The position numbers were made by a program, and so were the translations under genes. Under the pieces are notes generated by a model, which worked only from the letters and a program-made list of their open reading frames with translations, searched no databases and was not told the DNA's origin. A DNA stretch of 16,812 nt from an uncultured bacterium. Lineage in GTDB: Bacteria > Abyssobacteria > SURF-5. Shown piece after piece: positions 2,897 to 12,406 of the stretch (within the stretch, counting starts at the first letter, position 1; each line of letters opens with the position of its first letter). The stretch spans positions 1 to 16,812 of the forward strand of contig CAZEBC010000025.1 of the NCBI GenBank assembly GCA_964510165.1. The letters run 5' to 3'.

Positions 2897-4846
2897 TCAT
2901 CCTCTCGAAATCAGTGTCTCCGATTTTGGCTGCGGATAAGGCTCGATGATGGTCAGCATGGACTCATCCAGCCCCTGATGGCATGCCGCGCAGCGCGCAA
3001 GGTCCGGAGCAAGCTCCGCCTTCTCCGTCTGTTTCTGCTTGTGGCATTCGACGCACAGATTATGCATCGCGGTCATGTACCCGGCGGCAAACCCTTCGAG
3101 CTTCTCCTCAGCCTTCACGAAGCTATTTGGCGCCCGCATGTTCTTGTGACATTCCTCGCACTGAGTGACGGTCTGGCGGTTCTTGGATTGTGCCGGGTCG
3201 CGATGACACTCGACGCAACCGCCCTTCTCTTCGAGCTTTCCCCGATGGTATTCGTGATCGAATATGTCGGTCGTCAGGAACATGTCGCGGTGGCATTCGT
3301 TACAGGATGTGTCCTTGTCGAGCGGCTTGTTCATGTGGTGACACATGCCGCAGGATTCCTTGCCGCCGTTCTTCTCCTGATGCATGTCATGATTGAACAG
3401 GACAAACTTGTTGTTGCGGTCACCATCAATGAGGAGCATCTCCTTCTTCTCGCCATTGACGGGATTCTCGCTCGCGCCAGGCTCATACAGCGCGTACACA
3501 AAAAGCAGTCCATCTTCGGCTTTGGTCTCGAGTCCGTCAACGCGACGAGCGCCTTCAACCGGCGTTTGCTCCGGCGTCACTCCTCCTATCGTGTAATCGG
3601 GCATAAGCGCCAACGCAAGGGCGGCGCCTATGACGAAGATCAGCGAGTACACCCGTACCCCCGCCATGTTCGACCAGCCCAGCCTCACTCCGGTCACCGG
3701 GTCGGCCTCCGGAATGTCGTATTTCTCCTGCCTCGCCGCCCTCGGCTCTTCATAGACGTGGAAATTCTCCACGAAGAAGAAGAACGCCAGCCCTGCTGCC
3801 GAGACGATGCCTATGCTGACCGCAAACTCGGTCCAGGACGGGAAGTAGCGCGAGCCGGTCTCGGAAACCGACGCAAGCCCGCTCACATTGATCCGGTTCA
3901 GCACGAAGCCGAGCACGGCCATGCCCGCGCCGGTCGCCAGGCCGCCAATGCTTTCTCGCACCTTCGCCGAGGAAAACAGAAGCGCCGGCACAATCGCGCT
4001 TATCAGCAACTCGAAAATGAACAGGCCGCCTTCCCATGAATCGGCCAGATAATGCAGCTTGCCGGTGACCGCCACATCAACCAGCCGCATTGCGGCGTAC
4101 AACCCGAGCACATATGCCGCCGCCCTGGCAAGCCCTTTGAGCAGGTCGGTTTCCGCATGCTTCTTATATAGCCAGGATGTCACCATGGACTCCGTCATCA
4201 CCATCGTCAGGCCGAGCCCGATCGCCGAGACAAAGAACAATATCGGCAGGATGGGCGAATACCACAATGGATGCGTCCGGTACGGCATGATGAGGAACAG
4301 CGTGCCGAGCGATGACTGATGCAGCGTCGAGAGCATGATCCCCAAAATCACGAGTGGCAGCGTCAGCGCCTTCAATATCTTGTAAAGCGTCTGGAAAATG
4401 GGAATCTGGATGCGTTCAAGCACGACGGGCGCGAATTCGAGCTGGAGCACCGTGAAATACAGCATCACGCACCAGGCAACCTCGAACAGCGCCGAATGAT
4501 GCTGCCAGAAGAACATCGGTCGCCATATGTTCCACGGTATCCCGATGTCGAACATCAAGCCCCCGACGACCGCCGCGTACCCCAAGAACGCGGTCAGCAC
4601 GGCCGGCCTCAGGAACGGCCGATATTTCTCCATATGGAAGATGTAGACGGTCGCCGCGATGACGAAGCCGCCCGCCGCCAAAGCGACGCCTCCGAGCACG
4701 TCAAACCCGATCCACAGCCCCCACGGCGTCATGTCGGTGAGCGCGGTCACCGTTCCAAGTCCCTTAAGGAACCGGAACACGGTCACCGTGGCGGCCACCC
4801 CAACCAGGAACCACAAGATTGCTTTTACAGTCCTGAGTCTAGTCAT
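2897..4846 (-). CDS. NrfD/HybB/HmcC-family integral membrane subunit fused to a C-terminal six-heme cytochrome c3-like domain
   Basis: PWGLWIGFDVLGGVALAAGGF and STLHQSSLG motifs of HybB/HmcC with about 10 TM helices, then one extra TM helix. Six CxxCH motifs (CGMCH, CNECH, CVECH, CEECH, CVECH, CAACH) plus FNHDMH, FDHEYH and AMHNLC class III cytochrome signatures. Confidence 0.9.
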   Translation of the reverse strand: MTRLRTVKAILWFLVGVAATVTVFRFLKGLGTVTALTDMTPWGLWIGFDVLGGVALAAGGFVIAATVYIFHMEKYRPFLRPAVLTAFLGYAAVVGGLMFDIGIPWNIWRPMFFWQHHSALFEVAWCVMLYFTVLQLEFAPVVLERIQIPIFQTLYKILKALTLPLVILGIMLSTLHQSSLGTLFLIMPYRTHPLWYSPILPILFFVSAIGLGLTMVMTESMVTSWLYKKHAETDLLKGLARAAAYVLGLYAAMRLVDVAVTGKLHYLADSWEGGLFIFELLISAIVPALLFSSAKVRESIGGLATGAGMAVLGFVLNRINVSGLASVSETGSRYFPSWTEFAVSIGIVSAAGLAFFFFVENFHVYEEPRAARQEKYDIPEADPVTGVRLGWSNMAGVRVYSLIFVIGAALALALMPDYTIGGVTPEQTPVEGARRVDGLETKAEDGLLFVYALYEPGASENPVNGEKKEMLLIDGDRNNKFVLFNHDMHQEKNGGKESCGMCHHMNKPLDKDTSCNECHRDMFLTTDIFDHEYHRGKLEEKGGCVECHRDPAQSKNRQTVTQCEECHKNMRAPNSFVKAEEKLEGFAAGYMTAMHNLCVECHKQKQTEKAELAPDLARCAACHQGLDESMLTIIEPYPQPKSETLISRG

Positions 4847-5664
4847 TTCTTCGCCTCTGAATTATCTTCGCCTTTGTCGGTCGCCGAGTTCTGTCCGTTG
4901 GAATCGCCCATTGCCTCGGCCTGCAGTTTCATGCGTCGGTCAATGATCCAGTACACGCCGTACATCATGGCGCCCACTCCGATGAATACGCCGGGCACCT
5001 TGTTCAGGAACACCCACGTCTTGTGCGGGAGCGGGTCCTTCTCCAACTCGGGCTTCAGCCCGAGGAAGTCCAGACTGATGTCGGACACATAGAGAACCGA
5101 GGTCCCGCCGACATCATGCTCTCCGTATACCTTGTTGATGTAAAGATCGGGCTTTTCCTCGATTCTTTTGTGGGCTTCGACCAATAGTTCCTCGCGTTCG
5201 CCGTAAATGGTCGCTTTTTCAGGACAGGCTGCGGTGCACGCCGGCTGCTCGAGTTCGCCGCTCTTGATCTTGTCGTAGCACATGACGCACTTGCGCACAT
5301 ACGGAACCGACTGCGCCCAGTCGTAGCGCGGGATGCCGTACGGGCACGCCATCATGCAGTAGCGGCAGCCCATGCATATCTTCGAGTTGTACACGACCGG
5401 CCCCTCAGGCGTCTTGTGCATCGCGCCGACGGGACACACTGACGCGCATGCCGGCTCCAGGCAGTGCCGGCACTGTTTTCGCACGTAGTGTTTCTGCGGG
5501 CGGTTGACGACGGTGGTCCACCGGCTGGCGGACAGGTCATCAATCTTTCTCTGCCACCGCCAGGGCCTGTCGTCTCCCGTCTCGTTGGTCTTCTTGCACG
5601 CGGCCACGCATTCCTCGCAGCCGATGCACTTGGTCACGTCTGTCAGAATGCTCATCTGTTTCAT
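4843..5664 (-). CDS. 4x[4Fe-4S] electron-transfer subunit (HybA/HmcB/FdnH family) with C-terminal TM anchor
   Basis: CIGCEECVAAC, CRHCLEPACASVCP, CMGCRYCMMACP, CVMC...PACTAACP; YGEHDVGGTSVLY; hydrophobic C-terminal helix. ATGA overlaps with both neighbours. Confidence 0.92.
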   Translation of the reverse strand: MKQMSILTDVTKCIGCEECVAACKKTNETGDDRPWRWQRKIDDLSASRWTTVVNRPQKHYVRKQCRHCLEPACASVCPVGAMHKTPEGPVVYNSKICMGCRYCMMACPYGIPRYDWAQSVPYVRKCVMCYDKIKSGELEQPACTAACPEKATIYGEREELLVEAHKRIEEKPDLYINKVYGEHDVGGTSVLYVSDISLDFLGLKPELEKDPLPHKTWVFLNKVPGVFIGVGAMMYGVYWIIDRRMKLQAEAMGDSNGQNSATDKGEDNSEAKK

Positions 5665-6365
5665 ATCGGCACGTTCTCTTTCTTAAGGGCCCTTGCAACG
5701 TCATCGCCCGATTCCGCGGGGAAACGCCAGCCCACTTCCGACACAAGCTGGGTCGCGGGCAACAACACGATGTGGCCGAGCTTGCTGAACGGAATCATGA
5801 CGAATATCACATTGGCGCTCATCACATGAATGAACATCACGAGGTTGTAATCGGCGGGGTTCCAGGCCGGATGCATCGCGAAGAATCCCGTTATGAACGG
5901 AATCACGAGCATCGCCGGAATCACCAGGTCCTGCACGCGGCTGATCCGCCTTGACTCGCGGTTGCTGAGCCGGCCCGCCAATAGCCCGATGGCCGCCGCA
6001 ATCGTCACCAGCGTGAGCGCATCGGCGAGCGCGTGCGGAATCGACGGCCAGGCTATCCCGAGTCCCCGCTCCCACAGCTCGATATGTGGAAGCAGGAAGA
6101 TGGGCGTCAGAATCAGTCCGACATGGAAGACCACCGACATCACGCTGTACACCGGCCGGTTGACTCCCATCTTCTTGAATGGGATAAGCCAATCGATCGT
6201 GGTCTTGAACACCACCTTGTAGGGAATATTCTTATCGCCCGCGCGCCTGATCGCCAGGATGATCTCGACAGCCTCGACGACCACGTTGCGAGCGAGCGCC
6301 AGAACCATCAGCAGGAATGCGAACTTGAACACCGGGCCTCGTGCCCACTCCAACCATTGTTCCAT
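5661..6365 (-). CDS. NarI/DsrM/HmcE-like membrane cytochrome b subunit
   Basis: N-terminal WARGP motif, about 5 TM helices, four candidate heme b histidines (VFHVG, LPHIE, FIHVM, LGHIV), IPFSKLGH motif. Confidence 0.85.
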   Translation of the reverse strand: MEQWLEWARGPVFKFAFLLMVLALARNVVVEAVEIILAIRRAGDKNIPYKVVFKTTIDWLIPFKKMGVNRPVYSVMSVVFHVGLILTPIFLLPHIELWERGLGIAWPSIPHALADALTLVTIAAAIGLLAGRLSNRESRRISRVQDLVIPAMLVIPFITGFFAMHPAWNPADYNLVMFIHVMSANVIFVMIPFSKLGHIVLLPATQLVSEVGWRFPAESGDDVARALKKENVPI

Positions 6366-6369
6366 TGCT

Positions 6370-7752
6370 CTATTCCTTCTCTTCCTCTTCTTCGCCCTTT
6401 GGTCTTATGCCGTAGTATTCGTAGTCAATGGCCTTCAGCACCAGGTCGTGAAGGCCGATCACTTCCATGTCGTGCAGTTCGTTGTCCTCGCACACCTCGC
6501 GAAGCTGCTTCTTGCAGTTGGCGCACGGAGCCACGATGTACTTGGCGCCGGTCCGCTTGAGTTGCTCGGCCTTGACTCTGCCGCCGATGCCGGTGCGGAA
6601 CTTGCGGATTTCGTCTATCGAGACCGTGCCGCCTCCACCGCCGCAGCAGATATTCATCTGGCCGCTCGGGACCATGTCCACGAAATCCTTGCAGATGGCC
6701 TCGAGTATCTCTCGCGGTTGGTTGATTATCCATTTCGAGCGGGCGATGTTGCAGGGGTCGTGATAGGTGACGCGCTCGGGAATGGAGCCTGCCTTGACTT
6801 TCAGCCGGCCTTCCAGGAGCGCCTTGTGCGTGTATTCCATGATGTTGACGACCGGCGGCGCGTCTCTCCCGCCGCAGAACGTCGGGATGAACGCCTTGGC
6901 CGAGCGCGACGCATGGCCGCATTCGCCGATCAGGATTTTCTTCGCTTTGAGGCGCTTCAGTTCTGTCACCTCTTTCCTCACGATGCGGCACAGAAGCGAG
7001 TCGCTGTAAAACAGGCCGTAGTTGATGCCATCATAGTAGCCGGTCCCGATGGTCCATGAGCCGTTGGTGACGTGCATCACGGCGGCGTTTCCCATGAGCG
7101 TGTCAGGCTCAAGCAGGTAGTCGCTGACCGCCGGGAAGAACACGTATTCGGCGCCCTCGACGTCCATCGGGAATTTCGCGGGCAGGTTGTACATCTCGAT
7201 CAACTCTTCCTCGAGGAACTCGCACGTGTCCTTCAAGGCGATCACGGGAATGGCCGACGTGTTGCCGGTCTTGCCCTGTAGCTGCTCGCGCGTCGCGACG
7301 ACGAGCGCCTTGGGGACGATGCCGACCTCGGCGAGAATCCAGCGCGCCAGATGCGTCATGAGGCCGTGGTCAACTCCCATCGGGCACCCGAATTTGCACC
7401 TGCGGCAGGCCGTGCAGCGATACACCGCTTCGGCCATCTCGTCAATGTAGGCATCGGTCAGCGTGAAGCTGTTGTGAAGCCTCGCCCGAATCGTGCCGCC
7501 GAGCGTGAAATACCGTCGGTACACTCTGAACAGCAGTTCCGAACGGTAACACGGCACGTCTCTCGGGTCGCCGCTTTCCAGAAAGACCTGGCAGTTGCAT
7601 CCGCAGCGCGCACATTTGGTGCTTGTGCGGGTGTACGTGTCAAGCGCCAACCCGTAATTTGAATGTTTCAGAATGGCCGCGAACGCTTCCAGGAAACGCC
7701 GCGGCCGTTCTGTCTCATTGTACGGCTCGACATAGTAAGGGTATTTTGCCAT
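6370..7752 (-). CDS. HmcF/DsrK/HdrD-like Fe-S oxidoreductase with CCG domain
   Basis: CTACRRCKFGCP ferredoxin motif, GECGH, YHDPCN, CCGGGGG and APCANC motifs. Confidence 0.9.
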   Translation of the reverse strand: MAKYPYYVEPYNETERPRRFLEAFAAILKHSNYGLALDTYTRTSTKCARCGCNCQVFLESGDPRDVPCYRSELLFRVYRRYFTLGGTIRARLHNSFTLTDAYIDEMAEAVYRCTACRRCKFGCPMGVDHGLMTHLARWILAEVGIVPKALVVATREQLQGKTGNTSAIPVIALKDTCEFLEEELIEMYNLPAKFPMDVEGAEYVFFPAVSDYLLEPDTLMGNAAVMHVTNGSWTIGTGYYDGINYGLFYSDSLLCRIVRKEVTELKRLKAKKILIGECGHASRSAKAFIPTFCGGRDAPPVVNIMEYTHKALLEGRLKVKAGSIPERVTYHDPCNIARSKWIINQPREILEAICKDFVDMVPSGQMNICCGGGGGTVSIDEIRKFRTGIGGRVKAEQLKRTGAKYIVAPCANCKKQLREVCEDNELHDMEVIGLHDLVLKAIDYEYYGIRPKGEEEEEKE

Positions 7753-7810
7753 GATGTGTTCCTGATTTTGACTGGGGTGTTGTCAAACGAGACTTGCGAA
7801 AAGAGTAAGG

Positions 7811-7827
7811 AGCAAGAGGCGGGCCAA
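7811..7827 (-). promoter_or_regulatory. Sigma54 (-24/-12) promoter for the Hmc-like operon
   Basis: Minus strand TTGGCCCGCCTCTTGCT has exact GG-N10-GC spacing, lies about 60 nt upstream of ATG 7752, and sits next to a divergent sigma54 activator gene. Confidence 0.8.
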
Positions 7828-7880
7828 TGCGCTTACCATGCGGCAACACGGCGTTGCGCACCGCTCTAAGCCCATGTCGC

Positions 7881-7893
7881 AAATATATTGAAA
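7881..7893 (-). promoter_or_regulatory. Putative IHF-binding site
   Basis: Minus strand TTTCAATATATTT resembles WATCAANNNNTTR. It lies in an AT-rich patch between the sigma54 promoter and the candidate enhancer. Confidence 0.45.
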
Positions 7894-7983
7894 AACAAGA
7901 CATTAGCCCGCAATGTCGCGGCAACACCGGCCCCTTGCGACGTTGCGATACGCCGTCGTGCTGCCCCCATCATCCCATGCTGT

Positions 7984-8011
7984 CATGTCACATAATTGAG
8001 ACATGTCACAT
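7984..8011. promoter_or_regulatory. Candidate enhancer (UAS) or operator for the sigma54 activator
   Basis: Imperfect palindrome TGTCACATAATTGAGACA (7986-8003) and direct repeat CATGTCACAT at 7984 and 8002, about 160-180 bp upstream of the -24 element. Confidence 0.5.
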
Positions 8012-8019
8012 TACGCATG

Positions 8020-8048
8020 TTGTATTCCTGGAACGGAGATGTTATAAT
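8020..8048 (+). promoter_or_regulatory. Sigma70 promoter of the activator gene
   Basis: TTGTAT-17-TATAAT with extended -10 TG; AGGGGG RBS before ATG 8075. Confidence 0.7.
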
Positions 8049-8074
8049 ATAGGCAAAACATAAGGGGGCTTATC

Positions 8075-9484
8075 ATGGCCCAAGAGAATCAAACACCCCA
8101 GGAATCAACACCCCGATTCACGTTGTTTGATGATGCAAGGAGAAAGATGGCGCAAAAAGAGTTGGACATCAGATTCTTCCCTCTCATCTTTGACACAATC
8201 TCCCACGGTATCTTCACCATTGACTCCGGAGGCCGAATCACCTCGTTCAACCGCATGGCCGAGAAGCTGACCGGTTACACGAGGGAGGAGGCCATCGGCA
8301 AGCAGTGCCACGAAATCTTCAGGGCCGACTTCTGCGAAGTGGAGTGTCCGCTGAAGCGAAGCATCAAGACGCGCGAGCGCAGCGAGGCGGTGGAAGTCAA
8401 CATCATGACGAAGGACGGCAGGCGTTTGCCGATCGCGATTTCGACGTCCGCGCTCGTGGACAAGGAAGGGCGCGTGCTCGGCGGCGTGGAGATGTTCCGC
8501 GACCTTTCGACCGTCACCGAACTTCGCAAGCGACTGGCCGGCACGTACGTCTTCGAGGATATCGTGAGCAAGAGCCCCTCGATGCGGAAGATTTTCGAGG
8601 TGATCCCGCTGGTTGCCAATAGCCAGAGCAACGTGCTCATCGAGGGCGACTCGGGCACGGGCAAGGAACTGGTTGCCCGCGCGATCCACAATATCAGCCT
8701 GCGCCGGCACAAGCCGTTCGTGGCCGTCAACTGTGCGGCGCTGCCCGACCAGTTGCTCGAGTCCGAGCTTTTCGGCTATAAGAAGGGCGCGTTTACGGAC
8801 GCGAAGAAAGACAAGCCGGGCCGCTTCGCGATGGCGGAGGGCGGCACGATCCTGCTGGATGAGATCGGCGACATCTCTTCGGCAATGCAGGTGAAACTTT
8901 TGCGCGTGCTCGAGACCAAGGAATACACACCGCTCGGCTCGAATCAGCCGGTCAAGGCCGACGTGCGCGTGATCGCGAGCACCAACCGGAACCTGGTGCG
9001 CGAGGTGCAGCGCAAGCGGTTCCGCTCGGACCTTTACTTCCGGCTCAACGTGGTCCGCATACAATTGCCGCCGCTGTCGGAGAGGCGCGAGGACATTCCT
9101 CTGCTCGTCAACCACTTCATCGAGCGATTCAACGCGCTGCAGGGGCGGCGCATCGCGAGGTGTTCGGAGCGCGTGATGGCCGCGCTGATGGGGTATCCGT
9201 TCCCCGGCAACGTGCGCGAGCTTGAGAACGCGATCGAGCACGCATTCGTCATCTGCATCGGCGACACGATTCAACTCGAGGACCTGCCGAGCCACATCGT
9301 GGCGTCGGTGACCGACTCGTCCGCAAAGACGAAGGCGCGGATGCTGCCGCTCGATAACGCCGAGGCCGAGACCATCCGCTCGACCTTGAGCAAGCATTTC
9401 GGCAACCGCAACCGCACCGCCGCCGAACTCGGCGTCTCGCGCAATACGCTGTGGCGCAAGATGAAGCGGTACGGCTTAATATAA
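8075..9484 (+). CDS. PAS-domain sigma54-dependent transcriptional activator (PAS-AAA+-Fis HTH)
   Basis: GDSGTGKE Walker A, ESELFG, GAFTDA loop, LLDEIGD Walker B, FRSDLYFRLNV, FPGNVRELEN, C-terminal LGVSRNTLWRKMK HTH. Confidence 0.96.
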   Translation: MAQENQTPQESTPRFTLFDDARRKMAQKELDIRFFPLIFDTISHGIFTIDSGGRITSFNRMAEKLTGYTREEAIGKQCHEIFRADFCEVECPLKRSIKTRERSEAVEVNIMTKDGRRLPIAISTSALVDKEGRVLGGVEMFRDLSTVTELRKRLAGTYVFEDIVSKSPSMRKIFEVIPLVANSQSNVLIEGDSGTGKELVARAIHNISLRRHKPFVAVNCAALPDQLLESELFGYKKGAFTDAKKDKPGRFAMAEGGTILLDEIGDISSAMQVKLLRVLETKEYTPLGSNQPVKADVRVIASTNRNLVREVQRKRFRSDLYFRLNVVRIQLPPLSERREDIPLLVNHFIERFNALQGRRIARCSERVMAALMGYPFPGNVRELENAIEHAFVICIGDTIQLEDLPSHIVASVTDSSAKTKARMLPLDNAEAETIRSTLSKHFGNRNRTAAELGVSRNTLWRKMKRYGLI

Positions 9485-9584
9485 AGGGGGAAAAGGGGAA
9501 AGGGAAAAAGGGGACGTGTTACGTATTTCGTGTTGTGTGTTGCGTGTGGACCCTGAACCCTAAACCCTGAACGCTAAACGTTCT
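9485..9584. repeat. Three abutting heptamer tandem-repeat tracts
   Basis: (AAAGGGG)-like x~4, then CGTGTTA CGTATTT CGTGTTG TGTGTTG CGTGTGG (9515-9549), then ACCCTGA ACCCTAA ACCCTGA ACGCTAA ACGTTCT (9550-9584). Confidence 0.8.
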
Positions 9585-9585
9585 C

Positions 9586-10002
9586 ATGCCTGACTTCAGC
9601 GTAACACCCCCAAAGCAGAAGGCCCTCGAGGATAAGATGGAGCGCCTTGGCATCTTTGAGAAGGACCTGGTCGAGAAGTTCATCCGTTCAGGCGGCCCCG
9701 GCGGGCAGAACGTCAACAAGACCGCGACCGCCGTGTATCTCAAGCATATCCCGACCGGCATTGAGGTCAAGGTGCAGCGTGAGCGCTCGCAGGCACTCAA
9801 CCGGTTCCTCGCGCGGCGGCTCTTGGCCGACAAGATCGAGGCGATGCAAACCCGCGAGAAGACCGACGAGCAGCAGCGCATCGAGAAAATCCGCCGCCAG
9901 AAACGAAAACGCTCGAAGCGCGCGAAAGAGAAAATCCGCCGCCACAAGAAGCTCCAATCCGAGAAGAAGCAACTCCGCTCTGCCGTCGAGCCGGAGGGAT
10001 GA
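9586..10002 (+). CDS. arfB: ArfB/YaeJ-like GGQ peptidyl-tRNA hydrolase (RF-1 domain ribosome rescue factor)
   Basis: FIRSGGPGGQNVNK, HIPTGI, RSQALNR and a highly basic C-terminal tail; 138 aa. Confidence 0.85.
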   Translation: MPDFSVTPPKQKALEDKMERLGIFEKDLVEKFIRSGGPGGQNVNKTATAVYLKHIPTGIEVKVQRERSQALNRFLARRLLADKIEAMQTREKTDEQQRIEKIRRQKRKRSKRAKEKIRRHKKLQSEKKQLRSAVEPEG

Positions 10003-10093
10003 AACCGGTGGAGCCGGGAGGAAAGGTCTTCTTCACCACCAAGGAAACCAAGAATCACCAATATTTGGTGGGCATTCGATTTGGTGGTATCTG

Positions 10094-10122
10094 TTGCCAA
10101 AATGCACACAATGTGATACAAT
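10094..10122 (+). promoter_or_regulatory. Sigma70 promoter of brnT operon, probably giving a leaderless mRNA
   Basis: TTGCCA-17-TACAAT with TG extension; ATG begins 7 nt after the -10 box; CACAATGTG near-palindrome in the spacer. Confidence 0.65.
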
Positions 10123-10128
10123 CCAAGA

Positions 10129-10413
10129 ATGAAGAGGCTTAACTGGAATACGGAGAAAAGCCTGCTGCTCAAGGCGAAGCGGGGAATCGGCTTTGAGGAA
10201 GTGGTTTTCCACATTGCAGGGGGTGACATACTGGATGACTATGAGCATCCAAACCAACAGAAATACGCTGGCCAACGGATAGTCGTGGTTGGCATCAACA
10301 ACCGCGCCTATCTCGTGCCCTATGTCGAGAACAAGGACGAAGTGTTTCTAAAGACAATCATCCCGAGCAGGAAGGCGACTGAAAAATATTTTGGAGAAAG
10401 ACATGAAAACTAG
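10129..10413 (+). CDS. brnT: BrnT-family (DUF497-like) toxin
   Basis: WNTEKSLLLKAKRGIGFEEV, HPNQQKY, LKTIIPSRKAT motifs; overlaps the downstream antitoxin gene. Confidence 0.85.
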   Translation: MKRLNWNTEKSLLLKAKRGIGFEEVVFHIAGGDILDDYEHPNQQKYAGQRIVVVGINNRAYLVPYVENKDEVFLKTIIPSRKATEKYFGERHEN

Positions 10414-10681
10414 ACTGACAAAAGAAGAGGAGGAAATCCTTGAGAGCTTTGAGAAAGGCGAATGGATTCCCGCGAAGAACCTTTCGAGCAGGAAGAAACA
10501 TCTGATGAAGTACGCGCGGGACACGTTGAGAAAGGACAAGAGGCTCAACATCCGGATTTCCGAACGAGACCTTCTCGAGTTGAAGAAGATGGCGGTGAGG
10601 GAAGGATTGCCGTATCAGACGTTTGTGTCCAGCATACTTCATAAGTTCGTGAACGGGAGACTGGTCGAGCAAAAGAAATAG
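10403..10681 (+). CDS. BrnA/CopG-like RHH antitoxin
   Basis: EEEEILESFEKGEW N-terminus and RLNIRIS...EGLPYQTFVSSILHKF RHH region; GGAG RBS before ATG 10403. Confidence 0.85.
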   Translation: MKTRLTKEEEEILESFEKGEWIPAKNLSSRKKHLMKYARDTLRKDKRLNIRISERDLLELKKMAVREGLPYQTFVSSILHKFVNGRLVEQKK

Positions 10682-10697
10682 CGTCCTGCTGCCGTCC

Positions 10698-10926
10698 AAA
10701 ACTGTGGGTTGAAGCTAAAACACATCTTCCCAAACTCCTCGAACGGGTGGCAAGAGGGGAGCGAATAACGATTACCAAACACAGCGTTCCCGTGGCCACC
10801 CTGCAACCCGCAGACTCCGCGAAGAAGCCCGCGCGCGAAACTATCGCGCAGTTGAAGCGGTTTCGCGCCGGGCGCCGGCGTGGCGGCCTGTCGATACAGA
10901 GCATGATCAAAGAGGGAAGACGGTGA
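10698..10926 (+). pseudogene. Phd/YefM-family antitoxin, start lost and frameshifted
   Basis: KTVG in one frame, then EAKTHLPKLLERVARGERITITKHSVPVA...MIKEGRR* in another; no ATG or RBS; TGATG overlap with vapC. Confidence 0.8.
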
Positions 10927-11270
10927 TGTCCACACGATTCGTCGTCGATAATTCGGTCGTGATGGCGTGGTGTTTCGAGGATGAACCAGCCGGTTACGCC
11001 GAGGCCGTGCTCGAAACGCTCGAGACCTGCGAAGCGGTTGTGCCCGCAATATGGCCGCTGGAGGTCGGCAATGTTCTGCTGGCGGCGGAACGGAAGAAAC
11101 GGTTGAGCGAGGCCGATGTTTTCCGCTTTCTCGCGCTGCTATCCGACCTGCCGATTACGGTGGAACAGGAATTCCCGTAAAGAACGCTCAAAGAGATCGT
11201 TGCGCTCGCGCGGGAACAACAGCTTGCGACCTATGACGCTTCCTATCTGGACCTCGCGATGCGGTCGGGA
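10926..11270 (+). pseudogene. vapC: VapC/PIN toxin with in-frame nonsense codon and truncated C-terminus
   Basis: FVVDNSVVMAW, VPAIWPLEVGNVL. TAA at 11178-11180 is followed in frame by RTLKEIVALAREQQLATYDASYLDLAMRSG; the final PIN strand (LPxATxD) is missing. Confidence 0.85.
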
Positions 11271-11494
11271 GCAGTAGTGAAGATAACCAACACAATAACT
11301 GGATCGGTGGAAGAGTCTGCCGCCGTTTCTACGGATCCCGGGAAGACGGGCAACACGTTCAGATATGATCCCGCGGCTCAGCAATACATCTACAACTGGT
11401 CCACGAAGGGACTTACTGCAGGCACATATCAGCTTCGCATCAGCCTTGATGATGGGACTACGCACAAGTGAATTTGTCTCTGCGGACAAAATAA
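11271..11494 (+). pseudogene. C-terminal fragment of a PxKF-domain-like secreted/surface protein
   Basis: FRYDPAAQQYIYNWSTKGLTAGTYQLRISLDDGTTH followed, after a frameshift, by VNLSLRTK*. No N-terminus. Confidence 0.6.
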
Positions 11495-11759
11495 CAAGTC
11501 TTCGAATATTGGGGGCGAGGAGTCGTCCATGGTGGCGGCTTCTCTCTTTTCCGAGGGAATCCATCGCGAGTTCAGGAAAGAAGCACTCATTTTGTTGAAA
11601 GTTTGACTCATTCATGTGCTCCCAATAAGCGAAGGTGTCGCCGGAACTCTTCACTTATCCCCATCTGCGCAAGAGTCAAGATTCCGTTTTCAACTCAATT
11701 TCAAGGTCTGAGGTCTTTATCCCCATTGCCCACTCCGTCGCGATTTTCAGTGGCTTCAC

Positions 11760-11783
11760 GGGCGCAATGAATTGCGCCCCTAC
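11760..11783 (-). repeat. GTAG-type REP-like palindrome
   Basis: Minus strand GTAG-GGGCGCAATTCATTGCGCCC. Confidence 0.75.
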
Positions 11784-11871
11784 AAGGATTCTTGATTGCG
11801 GCCGTGGCCGCGCTGTGTCCTCCGCGTCTCGGCGGTTAAATCCCGCTTGGGTTCCCACATTGGTTTTGGAT

Positions 11872-11930
11872 TTGACGCTTTGACGTTATGATGTTATAAT
11901 GTCATAGTGAGAGAAGGGAGATGACATTAT
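11872..11930 (+). promoter_or_regulatory. Sigma70 promoter with operator repeats for the RHH/RelE operon
   Basis: TTGACG-17-TATAAT; four 8-bp tandem units (11873-11904); perfect inverted repeat ATAATGTCAT (11896) / ATGACATTAT (11921). Confidence 0.8.
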
Positions 11931-12162
11931 GGCGACTGAGAGCAAACGCGCTACCGTTTACTTCGATCCCGATTTGCACAAGGCGTTGCGGCTGAAATCG
12001 GTCGAGACCTCCCGGTCGGTGTCTGACCTCGTGAACGAGGCCGTCCGAGAAGCGCTGCTGGAAGACGCGGAGGACCTTGCCGCCTTTGAGGAAAGGGCCG
12101 GCGAGCCCCTGATCAGTTACGAGGAAGCGTTGAAGAGGCTGAGAAAAGATGGCCGCCTATAG
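11929..12162 (+). CDS. CopG/RHH-family antitoxin
   Basis: KRATVYFDPDLHKALRLKS...SVSDLVNEAV RHH fold and acidic C-terminus; overlaps relE. Confidence 0.88.
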   Translation: MATESKRATVYFDPDLHKALRLKSVETSRSVSDLVNEAVREALLEDAEDLAAFEERAGEPLISYEEALKRLRKDGRL

Positions 12163-12406
12163 GCTCTTCTTCAAGAAGTCAGTGCTGAAAGACCTGAGCG
12201 CGATTCCGAAGAGGGACCTAAAGAGAATCCTCAGCCGAATCGAGGCCCTCGCCGAAGAACCTCGCCCCGCTGGATGCGAAAAACTCTCAGGACATGAAAA
12301 GTATCGGCTGCGCCAGGGAAGATACCGTATCTTGTATTCCATTCAGGACGATGAACTGACGGTGTGGATGGTGAGGGTCGCACACCGGAAGGACGTCCAT
12401 CGCTGA
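12149..12406 (+). CDS. relE: RelE/ParE-family toxin
   Basis: YRLFFKKSVLKDL, PRPAGCEKLSG, YRLRQGRYRILY, VAHRKDVHR. Confidence 0.92.
   Translation: MAAYRLFFKKSVLKDLSAIPKRDLKRILSRIEALAEEPRPAGCEKLSGHEKYRLRQGRYRILYSIQDDELTVWMVRVAHRKDVHR

Follow-up and report, generated by a model that had tools for sequence, protein, structure and literature searches.

The window analysed here is a stretch of 16,812 nucleotides (contig CAZEBC010000025.1 of assembly GCA_964510165.1) from an uncultured bacterium of the Abyssobacteria lineage SURF-5. Its minus strand encodes four tightly packed genes, P0001 to P0004, which the listed open reading frames (ORFs) and their translations place between positions 7752 and 2897 (Table 1). 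A gap of 4 nt separates P0001 from P0002, P0002 and P0003 overlap by 4 nt in an ATGA arrangement, and P0003 and P0004 overlap by another 4 nt. The order of transcription, P0001-P0002-P0003-P0004, corresponds to F-E-B-C when the genes are named after the subunits of the Hmc complex. An initial annotation of the sequence had described four overlapping or nearly abutting genes in this very order, and ORF coordinates and profile searches bear it out. It had also remarked on the lack of a stand-alone cytochrome, HmcD, hydrogenase or molybdoenzyme gene nearby, which holds for the window and equally for the rest of its 31.6-kb contig, where the remaining genes are housekeeping genes. Most likely, the cluster encodes a transmembrane redox complex associated with dissimilatory sulfite reduction (Dsr) and provided with its own kinase, receivers and sigma-54 activator. 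This complex is widespread and uncharacterised.

Table 1. Position of the four-gene cluster, of the parts of its fused subunit, and of the regulatory features around it (window coordinates; aa, amino acids; HTH, helix-turn-helix).
Feature	Positions	Strand	Size	Description and support
P0001	6370-7752	minus	460 aa	Cytoplasmic CCG-domain iron-sulfur protein, DsrK/HmcF/TmcB-like
P0002	5661-6365	minus	234 aa	NarI-type membrane cytochrome b, HmcE/TmcC-like
P0003	4843-5664	minus	273 aa	4x[4Fe-4S] protein with C-terminal membrane anchor, HmcB/HybA-like, without signal peptide
P0004	2897-4846	minus	649 aa	NrfD subunit fused to six-haem class III cytochrome c
P0004, NrfD-type quinone-interacting domain	3746-4846	minus	residues 1-367	10 helices, HmcC/HybB-like (PF03916, AlphaFold2)
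P0004, eleventh membrane helix	3605-3658	minus	residues 397-414	Cytoplasm to periplasm (AlphaFold2, conserved hydrophobic stretch)
P0004, six-haem class III cytochrome c	2897-3595	minus	residues 418-649 + stop	Follows small beta-sheet subdomain, periplasmic (PF02085, AlphaFold2)
Stand-alone response-regulator receiver	2488-2868	minus	126 aa	PF00072, 73.5 bits; 28 nt after P0004
Histidine kinase with three PAS domains	668-2476	minus	602 aa	PAS_4, PAS, HATPase_c
Second receiver protein	64-645	minus	up to 193 aa	Start codon uncertain; PF00072, 78 bits
Sigma-54-dependent activator, divergent	8075-9484	plus		PAS, AAA+, Fis-type HTH; Sigma54_activat 232 bits, PAS_9, HTH_8
Candidate sigma-54 promoter (-24/-12)	7811-7826	minus		TGGCCC-N5-TTGCT, one mismatch; 59-74 nt before P0001 start codon

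The first gene product, P0001, carries a CCG domain (PF02754, 49.3 bits; cut-off 20.6). Its best NCBIfam profile is DsrK (256 bits, cut-off 400), ahead of TmcB (202, cut-off 735) and HmcF (201, cut-off 750). It has both the two ferredoxin-type cysteine motifs and the CCG cysteine set that mark DsrK, HmcF and TmcB: C47, C50, C54, C68 and the series C113, C116, C119, C123, C278, C334, C369, C370, C410 and C413 are each kept in 56-57 of 57 family members, and the series starting at C113 is kept in all 57 as well as in the DsrK, TmcB and HmcF references. The first cluster motif differs at residue 44, where the family has Ser or Thr and the references have Cys. C68, a cysteine found 24 residues later, occurs in 56 of the 57 members and not in the references, and one ligand of this cluster appears to have been relocated. 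A search of PDB sequences with P0001 gave one weak CCG match (9ojn_A, E = 2.7e-8). The conserved N-terminal D-R-P-R-R-F-L-E-A-F-A-A-I-L was considered as a twin-arginine (Tat) signal and rejected: no hydrophobic core follows the motif, the spacing of RRFLE is unlike that of RRxFLK, and DsrK and TmcB share a matching helix at the same position.

We placed each subunit in a quick, unrooted IQ-TREE phylogeny with few reference sequences and with support from the Shimodaira-Hasegawa-like approximate likelihood ratio test (SH-aLRT) only. The Hmc references came from the operons of three genomes whose HmcA exceeds its cut-off, those for DsrMKJOP, Tmc and Qrc from the window's own genome (NCBIfam score at or near cut-off), and HybA and HybB from Escherichia coli K-12. 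P0001 and its homologues form their own clade (SH-aLRT 95) on the DsrK side, away from a group of HmcF and TmcB with a support of 100. The initial annotation was right to call P0001 a CCG protein, and its label as the F subunit of Hmc has to give way to a closer affinity with DsrK.

P0002 is best matched by TmcC (130.5 bits, cut-off 240), then by HmcE (121, cut-off 275), and falls just short of the Pfam cut-off for NarI (21.9 bits against 22.9). Within the four-gene family, 63-64 of 64 members retain the histidines H81, H94, H180 and H198, which align with those of three HmcE, of TmcC and of DsrM. P0002 thus has the four conserved histidines on helices 2 and 5 that hold the two b haems of NarI-type dihaem cytochromes. 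By analogy with NarI, we take H81 and H198 to bind the cytoplasm-side (inner) haem and H94 and H180 the outer one. The P0002 family is a clade of its own (SH-aLRT 97) beside HmcE plus TmcC.

The 4x[4Fe-4S] subunit, P0003, matches Fer4_11 (72.4 bits) and, below the respective cut-offs, HmcB (244.5 against 420), HybA (196 against 263) and DsrO (94 against 200). All 16 of its cluster cysteines are invariant in 40 of 40 homologues. It forms its own clade (SH-aLRT 82) outside an HmcB clade with a support of 100. The protein begins right at its first cluster motif, and the match to the HmcB profile opens at profile position 37.

The most distinctive component is P0004. Its NrfD part (PF03916, 55.3 bits against 25.8) resembles HmcC (329 bits, cut-off 550) and HybB (270, cut-off 450) over residues 10-367, and the corresponding clade (SH-aLRT 96) adjoins HmcC plus HybB from the outside. 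The DsrM, DsrP and DsrJ profiles matched none of the cluster proteins at E <= 0.01, so that P0002 has no DsrM match and P0004 no DsrP match. An AlphaFold2 model of the whole protein (mean predicted local distance difference test score, pLDDT, 64.6) has eleven long helices, ten of which end by residue 362, the last spanning 397-414. Residues for quinone binding and proton conduction have been assigned in HybB in the available part of a review of NrfD proteins (PMC8076601), and their counterparts D49, D100, S118, E122, R80, Y90, E137, H176, E279 and R318 are each shared by 67-70 of 70 P0004 family members. P0004 is in this respect a cofactor-less, ten-helix NrfD protein of the HybB/HmcC type with its quinone and proton residues in place. 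Its N-terminus and even-numbered loops read as rich in Lys and Arg, which is consistent with the N-terminus being inside. An inside N-terminus followed by eleven helices puts the haem domain outside the cytoplasm, where the attachment of c-type haem occurs.

Judged by its sequence, the C-terminal domain is a class III cytochrome c (PF02085, 53.7 bits against 22.9). Six CxxCH motifs and six further histidines are invariant in 19 fused homologues (alignment A1), the same six motifs hold in 37 C-terminal domains together with five or six further invariant histidines, and exactly six CxxCH occur in 70 of 72 locus homologues. This fits a domain with six bis-His haems. Modelled alone (mean pLDDT 72, strands at 434-485), the domain gave no PDB match at E <= 0.001 in Foldseek, the top weak rows being c3, HmcA and NhcA; a PDB sequence search with P0004 returned no match. 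A complex prediction between P0004 418-649 and P0003 1-222 scored 0.00 ('no answer'), which is informative in neither direction. An assembly artefact was considered as the origin of the fusion and rejected: a word-indexed protein search found 5456 relatives among 8000 scored candidates, both Pfam domains are present in 118 of the 120 best rows, and the six-motif count quoted above recurs across loci. Public records list the fused protein as 'Ni/Fe-hydrogenase cytochrome b subunit', as 'HybB-like protein' or as 'NrfD/PsrC family molybdoenzyme membrane anchor'. Neither a hydrogenase nor a molybdoenzyme gene accompanies the fused gene on the window's contig, and none was seen among the plus-strand ORFs of five loci of the three-gene form described below. 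The hydrogenase cytochrome b label is wrong, and can mislead metabolic reconstructions from metagenome-assembled genomes into inferring hydrogen metabolism.

How does this assembly relate to known complexes? The four subunit kinds are those of Hmc (the CCG protein HmcF, the dihaem cytochrome b HmcE, the tail-anchored 4x[4Fe-4S] protein HmcB and the NrfD protein HmcC), accompanied by a class III multihaem cytochrome, and in both cases regulator genes trail the operon; for hmc, a trailing regulator gene is described in the available text of PMC10924467 (section 12). The differences are several. Hmc has a separate 16-haem HmcA encoded first in the operon, whereas the cluster has six haems fused to NrfD through an extra helix, a domain on which the HmcA profile reaches 35 bits (cut-off 400). 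Hmc also has a small membrane protein, HmcD, between HmcC and HmcE, for which the 4-nt gap and overlaps of the cluster leave no room. The order A-B-C-D-E-F contrasts with F-E-B-C, and in the reference Hmc operons an HmcA above its cut-off is indeed followed by B, C, E and F. Finally, HmcB has a twin-arginine signal and a C-terminal anchor, of which P0003 has the anchor and not the signal.

The resemblance to DsrMKJOP lies in the division of labour: a cytoplasmic CCG protein with a dihaem cytochrome b in the roles of K and M, and a periplasmic iron-sulfur protein, an NrfD protein and a c-type cytochrome in the roles of O, P and J. DsrJ, however, is a separate trihaem protein, in contrast to the fused hexahaem c3-like domain, and a true DsrMKJOP with all five subunits over cut-off is encoded elsewhere in the same genome (contig C8). 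Tmc shares the pairing of a CCG protein (TmcB) with a NarI-type cytochrome b (TmcC) fed by a periplasmic class III cytochrome; it lacks the NrfD/iron-sulfur pair, the cluster lacks TmcD, and a true TmcDCB is found on contig C26 of the genome. With HybA-HybB the cluster has in common a tail-anchored 4x[4Fe-4S] protein paired with a 10-helix NrfD protein that keeps its quinone and proton residues. That pair is encoded in Hydrogenase-2 together with the small and large hydrogenase subunits, whereas the window's 31.6-kb contig has no hydrogenase, and relative to it the cluster has no Tat signal, a fused cytochrome, and added b-haem and CCG subunits. Qrc and alternative complex III likewise combine a multihaem cytochrome c, an iron-sulfur protein and a cofactor-less NrfD protein to link periplasmic cytochromes with quinone, but they have a molybdopterin-like subunit bearing a Tat signal and no b-haem or CCG module. 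The QrcC and QrcD profiles reach 63 and 118 bits on the cluster, and two true Qrc complexes are encoded elsewhere in the genome.

All four proteins are well under every NCBIfam equivalog cut-off. Identity to HmcB and HmcC is 38-44% for P0003 and P0004, and 28-32% for the E and F subunits. Given these identities and a separate clade for each subunit, the family is, as judged by sequence comparison, a distinct relative of the known complexes, with an Hmc/Hyb-like outer module and an inner module that leans to DsrK. The initial annotation had named as a refutation of its proposal that the subunits would group inside canonical Hmc or Dsr clades; the phylogenies put them in groups of their own. What it had proposed, a minimal complex, stands as far as a transmembrane redox complex is concerned. 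As a stand-in for the known complexes it does not, because the genome keeps its DsrMKJOP, Tmc and two Qrc.

The cluster is common. A scan with one genome per species found the fused gene in at least 557 species genomes. Within the window's own family it is full-length in five of nine other genomes and present as a contig-truncated copy in one more. We used the best 80 loci of these at least 557 relatives for the analysis of synteny, all from metagenome-assembled or uncultured genomes, and they include Acidobacteriota, Planctomycetota, Gemmatimonadota, Latescibacterota, Zixibacteria, Chloroflexota, Thermodesulfobacteriota and others. By tblastn, 61 of the 80 have all four genes in the same order (counting locus L084, whose P0001 match is partial), 8 have P0002-P0003-P0004 without P0001 although each offers at least 3.6 kb of upstream sequence, 9 are cut by a contig end, and 2 show other arrangements. 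Because the same four genes recur in the same order in so many loci and phyla, the cluster is not a chance arrangement, and a lack of co-conservation, which the initial annotation had likewise offered as grounds for dismissing its proposal, is not what we see.

The eight three-gene loci are informative. They all belong to Planctomycetota, and in all eight P0002 has Arg in place of H81 and either Ser or Ala in place of H198, with H94 and H180 retained. In the three of them present in alignment A2, the P0003 homologue has all sixteen cysteines, and the five inspected ones retain the six CxxCH of the cytochrome domain. No dsrA was found in the genomes of these eight loci, nor any other dsr evidence in any of them. 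In five loci (L015, L018, L032, L033 and L038, at around positions 8000-10600), an N-terminally anchored cytochrome of about 850 residues with 23 CxxCH is encoded directly downstream of the NrfD-hexahaem gene. Since the CCG subunit and the ligands of the inner haem are lost together in the dsr-free three-gene form, the complex can be read as two modules. It fits these data that the outer module (outer b haem, iron-sulfur chain, NrfD and hexahaem domain) can serve periplasmic electron transfer alone, and that the inner module (inner b haem and CCG protein) goes with the presence of Dsr. The paired loss is in effect a natural experiment, singling out the part of the complex that serves the cytoplasm.

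A number of observations associate the cluster with Dsr. The window's genome is 97% complete and has sat, aprA, dsrAB, dsrD, dsrC and dsrN: it is a complete sulfate reducer. The check for dsrAB and dsrC suggested by the initial annotation thus comes out positive, with dsrD in addition. The genome also encodes DsrMKJOP (all five over cut-off), two Qrc, TmcDCB and further DsrK-like and HmcF-like genes, so the four-gene complex is an addition to DsrMKJOP, Tmc and Qrc, not a replacement for them. Of the 80 fused-gene genomes, 61 have a dsrA that passes its cut-off (34 of 50 plus 27 of 30) and four more have fragments or dsrB only. Fifty-seven of the 61 loci with all four genes come with dsr evidence, and in L029 dsrJ and dsrP are directly upstream of the cluster. 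In 13 of the 80 loci, the cluster is flanked within 6 kb by dsrAB, dsrJOP, sat, aprA or dsrN. We then compared the two distributions in samples of 401 genomes each from Acidobacteriota and Planctomycetota. In Acidobacteriota, dsrA occurs in 41 of 401 genomes, and 29 genomes have strong hits to the fused gene (E <= 1e-150), of which 27 have dsrA and the other two (G017 and G173) dsrB. Two further likely fused genes (G222 and G122) are both in genomes with dsrA, which means that all 31 fused-gene Acidobacteriota carry dsrA or dsrB; a partial hit in G263 was left unclassed. In Planctomycetota, dsrA is present in 8 genomes, the fused gene in 8, and both in 6. The co-occurrence with dsr, the proximity to dsr, sat and apr genes, and the CCG-less variant in dsr-free genomes lend support to the link with DsrC-type thiol chemistry that had been suggested at the outset.

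Considering the architecture, the cofactor ligands, the topology obtained by helix count and charge, the conservation of the genes as a unit and the association with dsr, we favour, with some confidence, the reading that the products of the four genes make up a single transmembrane redox complex, which is related to Hmc, Tmc and DsrMKJOP yet distinct from them and serves dissimilatory sulfite reduction. In such a complex, the hexahaem domain on the NrfD subunit would exchange electrons with periplasmic carriers, and electrons would run from it through the four clusters of P0003. From there, electrons could take one of two routes: into menaquinone at the NrfD domain, which has an intact proton path, or on to the outer haem of the cytochrome b. 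The two b haems of P0002 would move them to the cytoplasmic side, where P0001, the DsrK-like subunit, would receive them at its two [4Fe-4S] clusters and its CCG-bound cluster. This subunit might then reduce the disulfide or trisulfide of a sulfur carrier, most likely that of DsrC. Expression would be set by the dedicated kinase, the two receivers and the sigma-54 activator. Which way the electrons flow, that quinone is used, what the substrate is and that the iron-sulfur subunit sits in the periplasm are parts of this scheme that we infer.

Several facts count against a role in sulfite reduction. DsrMKJOP and Tmc are already in the window's genome, and a DsrC-reducing role would be redundant there. 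The fused gene is absent from 12 of the 43 dsr-bearing Acidobacteriota sampled. Conversely, complete four-gene clusters are found where neither dsrA nor dsrB was detected, in two Planctomycetota genomes (G780 and G813) and in G034 (locus L040) and G074 (locus L080), and the genome of L027 has no dsrA, dsrB having not been searched there. The sampled genomes are related, not independent, so the Fisher tests of the association (p = 2e-29 in Acidobacteriota, p = 1e-10 in Planctomycetota) overstate the case. By the same token, the eight three-gene loci are probably one lineage and a single loss event. None of the sequencing runs containing the stretch is recorded as RNA, the six that have it in whole or part being DNA runs. 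Added to this is the missing export signal of P0003, to which we return below.

Some of these facts would be accounted for if the complex were a general quinol:cytochrome c (or cytochrome c:quinone) oxidoreductase connected with periplasmic or extracellular electron transfer, its CCG protein acting on a substrate other than DsrC and its link to dsr reflecting a shared anaerobic habitat or co-transfer. The outer module does seem to work alone in the dsr-free Planctomycetota, beside a 23-haem cytochrome and without a CCG protein, four genomes with the four-gene cluster have no detectable dsrA or dsrB, and the HybB-type quinone and proton-path residues are fully retained. We nevertheless think this explanation unlikely. 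A general oxidoreductase would not be expected to be nearly confined to dsr-bearing genomes when these make up only 10% and 2% of the two phylum samples, nor to have dsr, sat or apr genes physically close in 13 of 80 loci, and the CCG subunit and the inner haem ligands are jointly lost exactly where dsr is missing. A different proposal would make the cluster the Hmc orthologue of these phyla, with a cytochrome that was shortened and fused, exchanging electrons between the periplasmic pool of hydrogen or cytochrome c3 and the cytoplasm as in Desulfovibrio. The best profiles of P0003 and P0004 are those of HmcB and HmcC, to which they are 38-44% identical, the cytochrome domain has weak matches to HmcA in both the profile search (35 bits) and the weak Foldseek rows (c3, HmcA, NhcA), and the operon is followed by a regulator gene as hmc is in the available text of PMC10924467 (section 12). 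Yet all four Hmc equivalog cut-offs are missed by wide margins, each subunit stands in its own clade (SH-aLRT 82-99) outside HmcB, HmcC, HmcE and HmcF, the CCG protein groups with DsrK, HmcA and HmcD are lacking, the HmcB-like subunit has no Tat signal, and the genes are in a different order. Orthology with Hmc in this sense seems to us quite improbable.

The unexplained point is how the iron-sulfur subunit P0003 gets exported. None of the 69 homologues with a full N-terminus has a Tat or Sec signal, which again weighs against the complex as we have drawn it, as what then remains to place P0003 in the periplasm is the charge bias of its anchor, homology and the fact that the three-gene form retains it. 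We also considered a Tat signal concealed upstream of P0003 and rejected it, because a stop codon bounds the ORF, in related loci often only 0-8 codons upstream of the start. Twin-arginine signals are present, by comparison, in six of six reference HmcB, in HybA of E. coli and in the DsrO of the window's own genome. No signal-bearing carrier protein is encoded within the operon. All this could mean that P0003 is cytoplasmic and connects the CCG protein with some other partner in the cytoplasm. The hexahaem domain would then feed the b haems directly, and NrfD would be a proton or quinone device only. Such an arrangement looks very improbable to us: Lys and Arg are more numerous after the anchor helix than before it in 63 of 75 homologues and R243 is invariant, a charge bias of the HybA/HmcB type; the orientation of NrfD is canonical, and its partner face would be periplasmic by the ten-helix topology given in the available part of PMC8076601; and the three-gene form, which loses the inner haem, keeps the 16 cysteines of a subunit that would be left unconnected in the cytoplasm. 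Based on the anchor and on the canonically oriented NrfD partner, we consider it likely that the cluster domain of P0003 is periplasmic. In the available text of PMC10924467 (section 12), a signal-less HybA-like protein is described only beside an FeFe hydrogenase with a Tat signal, a neighbour that P0003 does not have. The signal-less P0003 is thus a concrete and testable problem for the Tat field. It is not the only such case in this genome: contig C15 (locus L090, 2534-15363) encodes three N-terminally anchored GcvH-like proteins followed by a signal-less HmcB-like/HmcC-like pair, paralogous to the one described here (49% identity to P0003 and to the NrfD part of P0004), then a histidine kinase, a 460-aa multihaem cytochrome and QrcABCD. 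This pair poses the same export puzzle.

Dsr genes are known from numerous uncultured phyla that live in soil, peat, sediment and the subsurface, and the electron feed to their DsrC is inferred by analogy with Desulfovibrio. The Dsr-associated complex is present in hundreds of species, is almost diagnostic of dsr-bearing genomes in the two phylum samples, and has its own sensor system. A bolder reading would make it the principal route from periplasmic carriers and the quinone pool to DsrC in the newly recognised Dsr-bearing phyla (Acidobacteriota, Planctomycetota, Gemmatimonadota, Zixibacteria, Abyssubacteria and others), a single proton-motive complex merging the roles of Qrc, Tmc and DsrMKJOP, with a P0003 exported without either a Tat signal of its own or a signal-bearing partner in the operon. 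We regard this extension as doubtful. If true, it implies a so far undescribed route of export or assembly for cofactor-containing proteins. The suspicion that the family might be undescribed has held up, in that we found no description of the cluster or of the NrfD-hexahaem fusion in the searchable literature, which leaves supplements and most subscription journals outside the search. The cluster is not described in the available text, supplements aside, of PMC8076601, PMC10924467, PMC9386147, PMC10553843 or PMC6121073. 'Fused' and 'fusion' occur 0 times in the available part of the NrfD review (PMC8076601), and Hmc, Tmc, Qrc and dsrMK 0 times in that of the description of the Abyssubacteria (PMC6121073), whose Supplementary Data File 3 was outside the search. 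The text available for PMC10924467 does not have the cluster, and its Table S3 and Dataset S1, outside the search, may list it.

The regulatory genes are conserved along with the complex. The receiver, the kinase and the second receiver trail P0004 on the same strand with gaps of 11-28 nt. Homologues of the first receiver (2488-2868) occupy the same position in many related loci, those of the kinase (47-57% identity) come immediately after the fused gene in 36 of the 50 four-gene loci for which 2.5 kb or more of downstream sequence is available, and those of the second receiver (44-58% identity) follow the kinase in related loci. Upstream, an activator homologue (48-67% identity) is present in 36 of 60 four-gene loci. 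A similar motif with three cysteines lies inside PAS domains twice in the kinase (CYEVYKSRTKPCEAC and CYEIYKRRSEKCEDC) and once in the activator (CHEIFRADFCEVEC). Counting the best aligned pieces only, 26 of the 42 kinase matches from related loci have the motif, as do 15 of the 36 activator matches. This suggests that the kinase and the sigma-54 activator sense the same redox or metal signal. The candidate sigma-54 promoter before P0001 is the sole one-mismatch match in the window, and its strand and position are right. We treat it as a hint, because the 7 motif matches in the window do not exceed the mean of 8.4 in shuffled sequences and the strict motif is rare upstream in relatives (5 of 58 related loci have it there, compared with 20 of 1160 control windows).

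Other redox loci of the genome showed unusual arrangements. On contig C26 (locus L089, 3372-13707), QrcABCD is directly followed by TmcD, TmcC and TmcB, and then by a 519-aa cytochrome whose front matches HmcA (242 bits, below cut-off) and whose end matches TmcA (140 bits, above cut-off), an unusual Qrc-Tmc supercluster with an enlarged TmcA. On contig C8 (loci L087 and L088), a 2.65-kb stretch with dsrA and dsrB is present twice, at around 7800-10450 and 22090-24740, with 100% identity. The duplicated stretch extends to the start of dsrD, and its flanks differ: sat and aprA come after one copy, and dsrN, dsrC and dsrMKJOP after the other. This repeat may be either a real recent duplication or an assembly artefact.

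Beyond the divergent activator, the window encodes a protein with an RF-1 domain (ArfB-like) at 9586-10002, and then a region with short ORFs only (10000-12400), in which the G+C content is 51-53%, against 57-60% elsewhere. This region includes a BrnT-like toxin candidate (10129-10413; 28.6 bits, under the Pfam cut-off), followed by an overlapping ORF of 96 aa that was assigned to no family.

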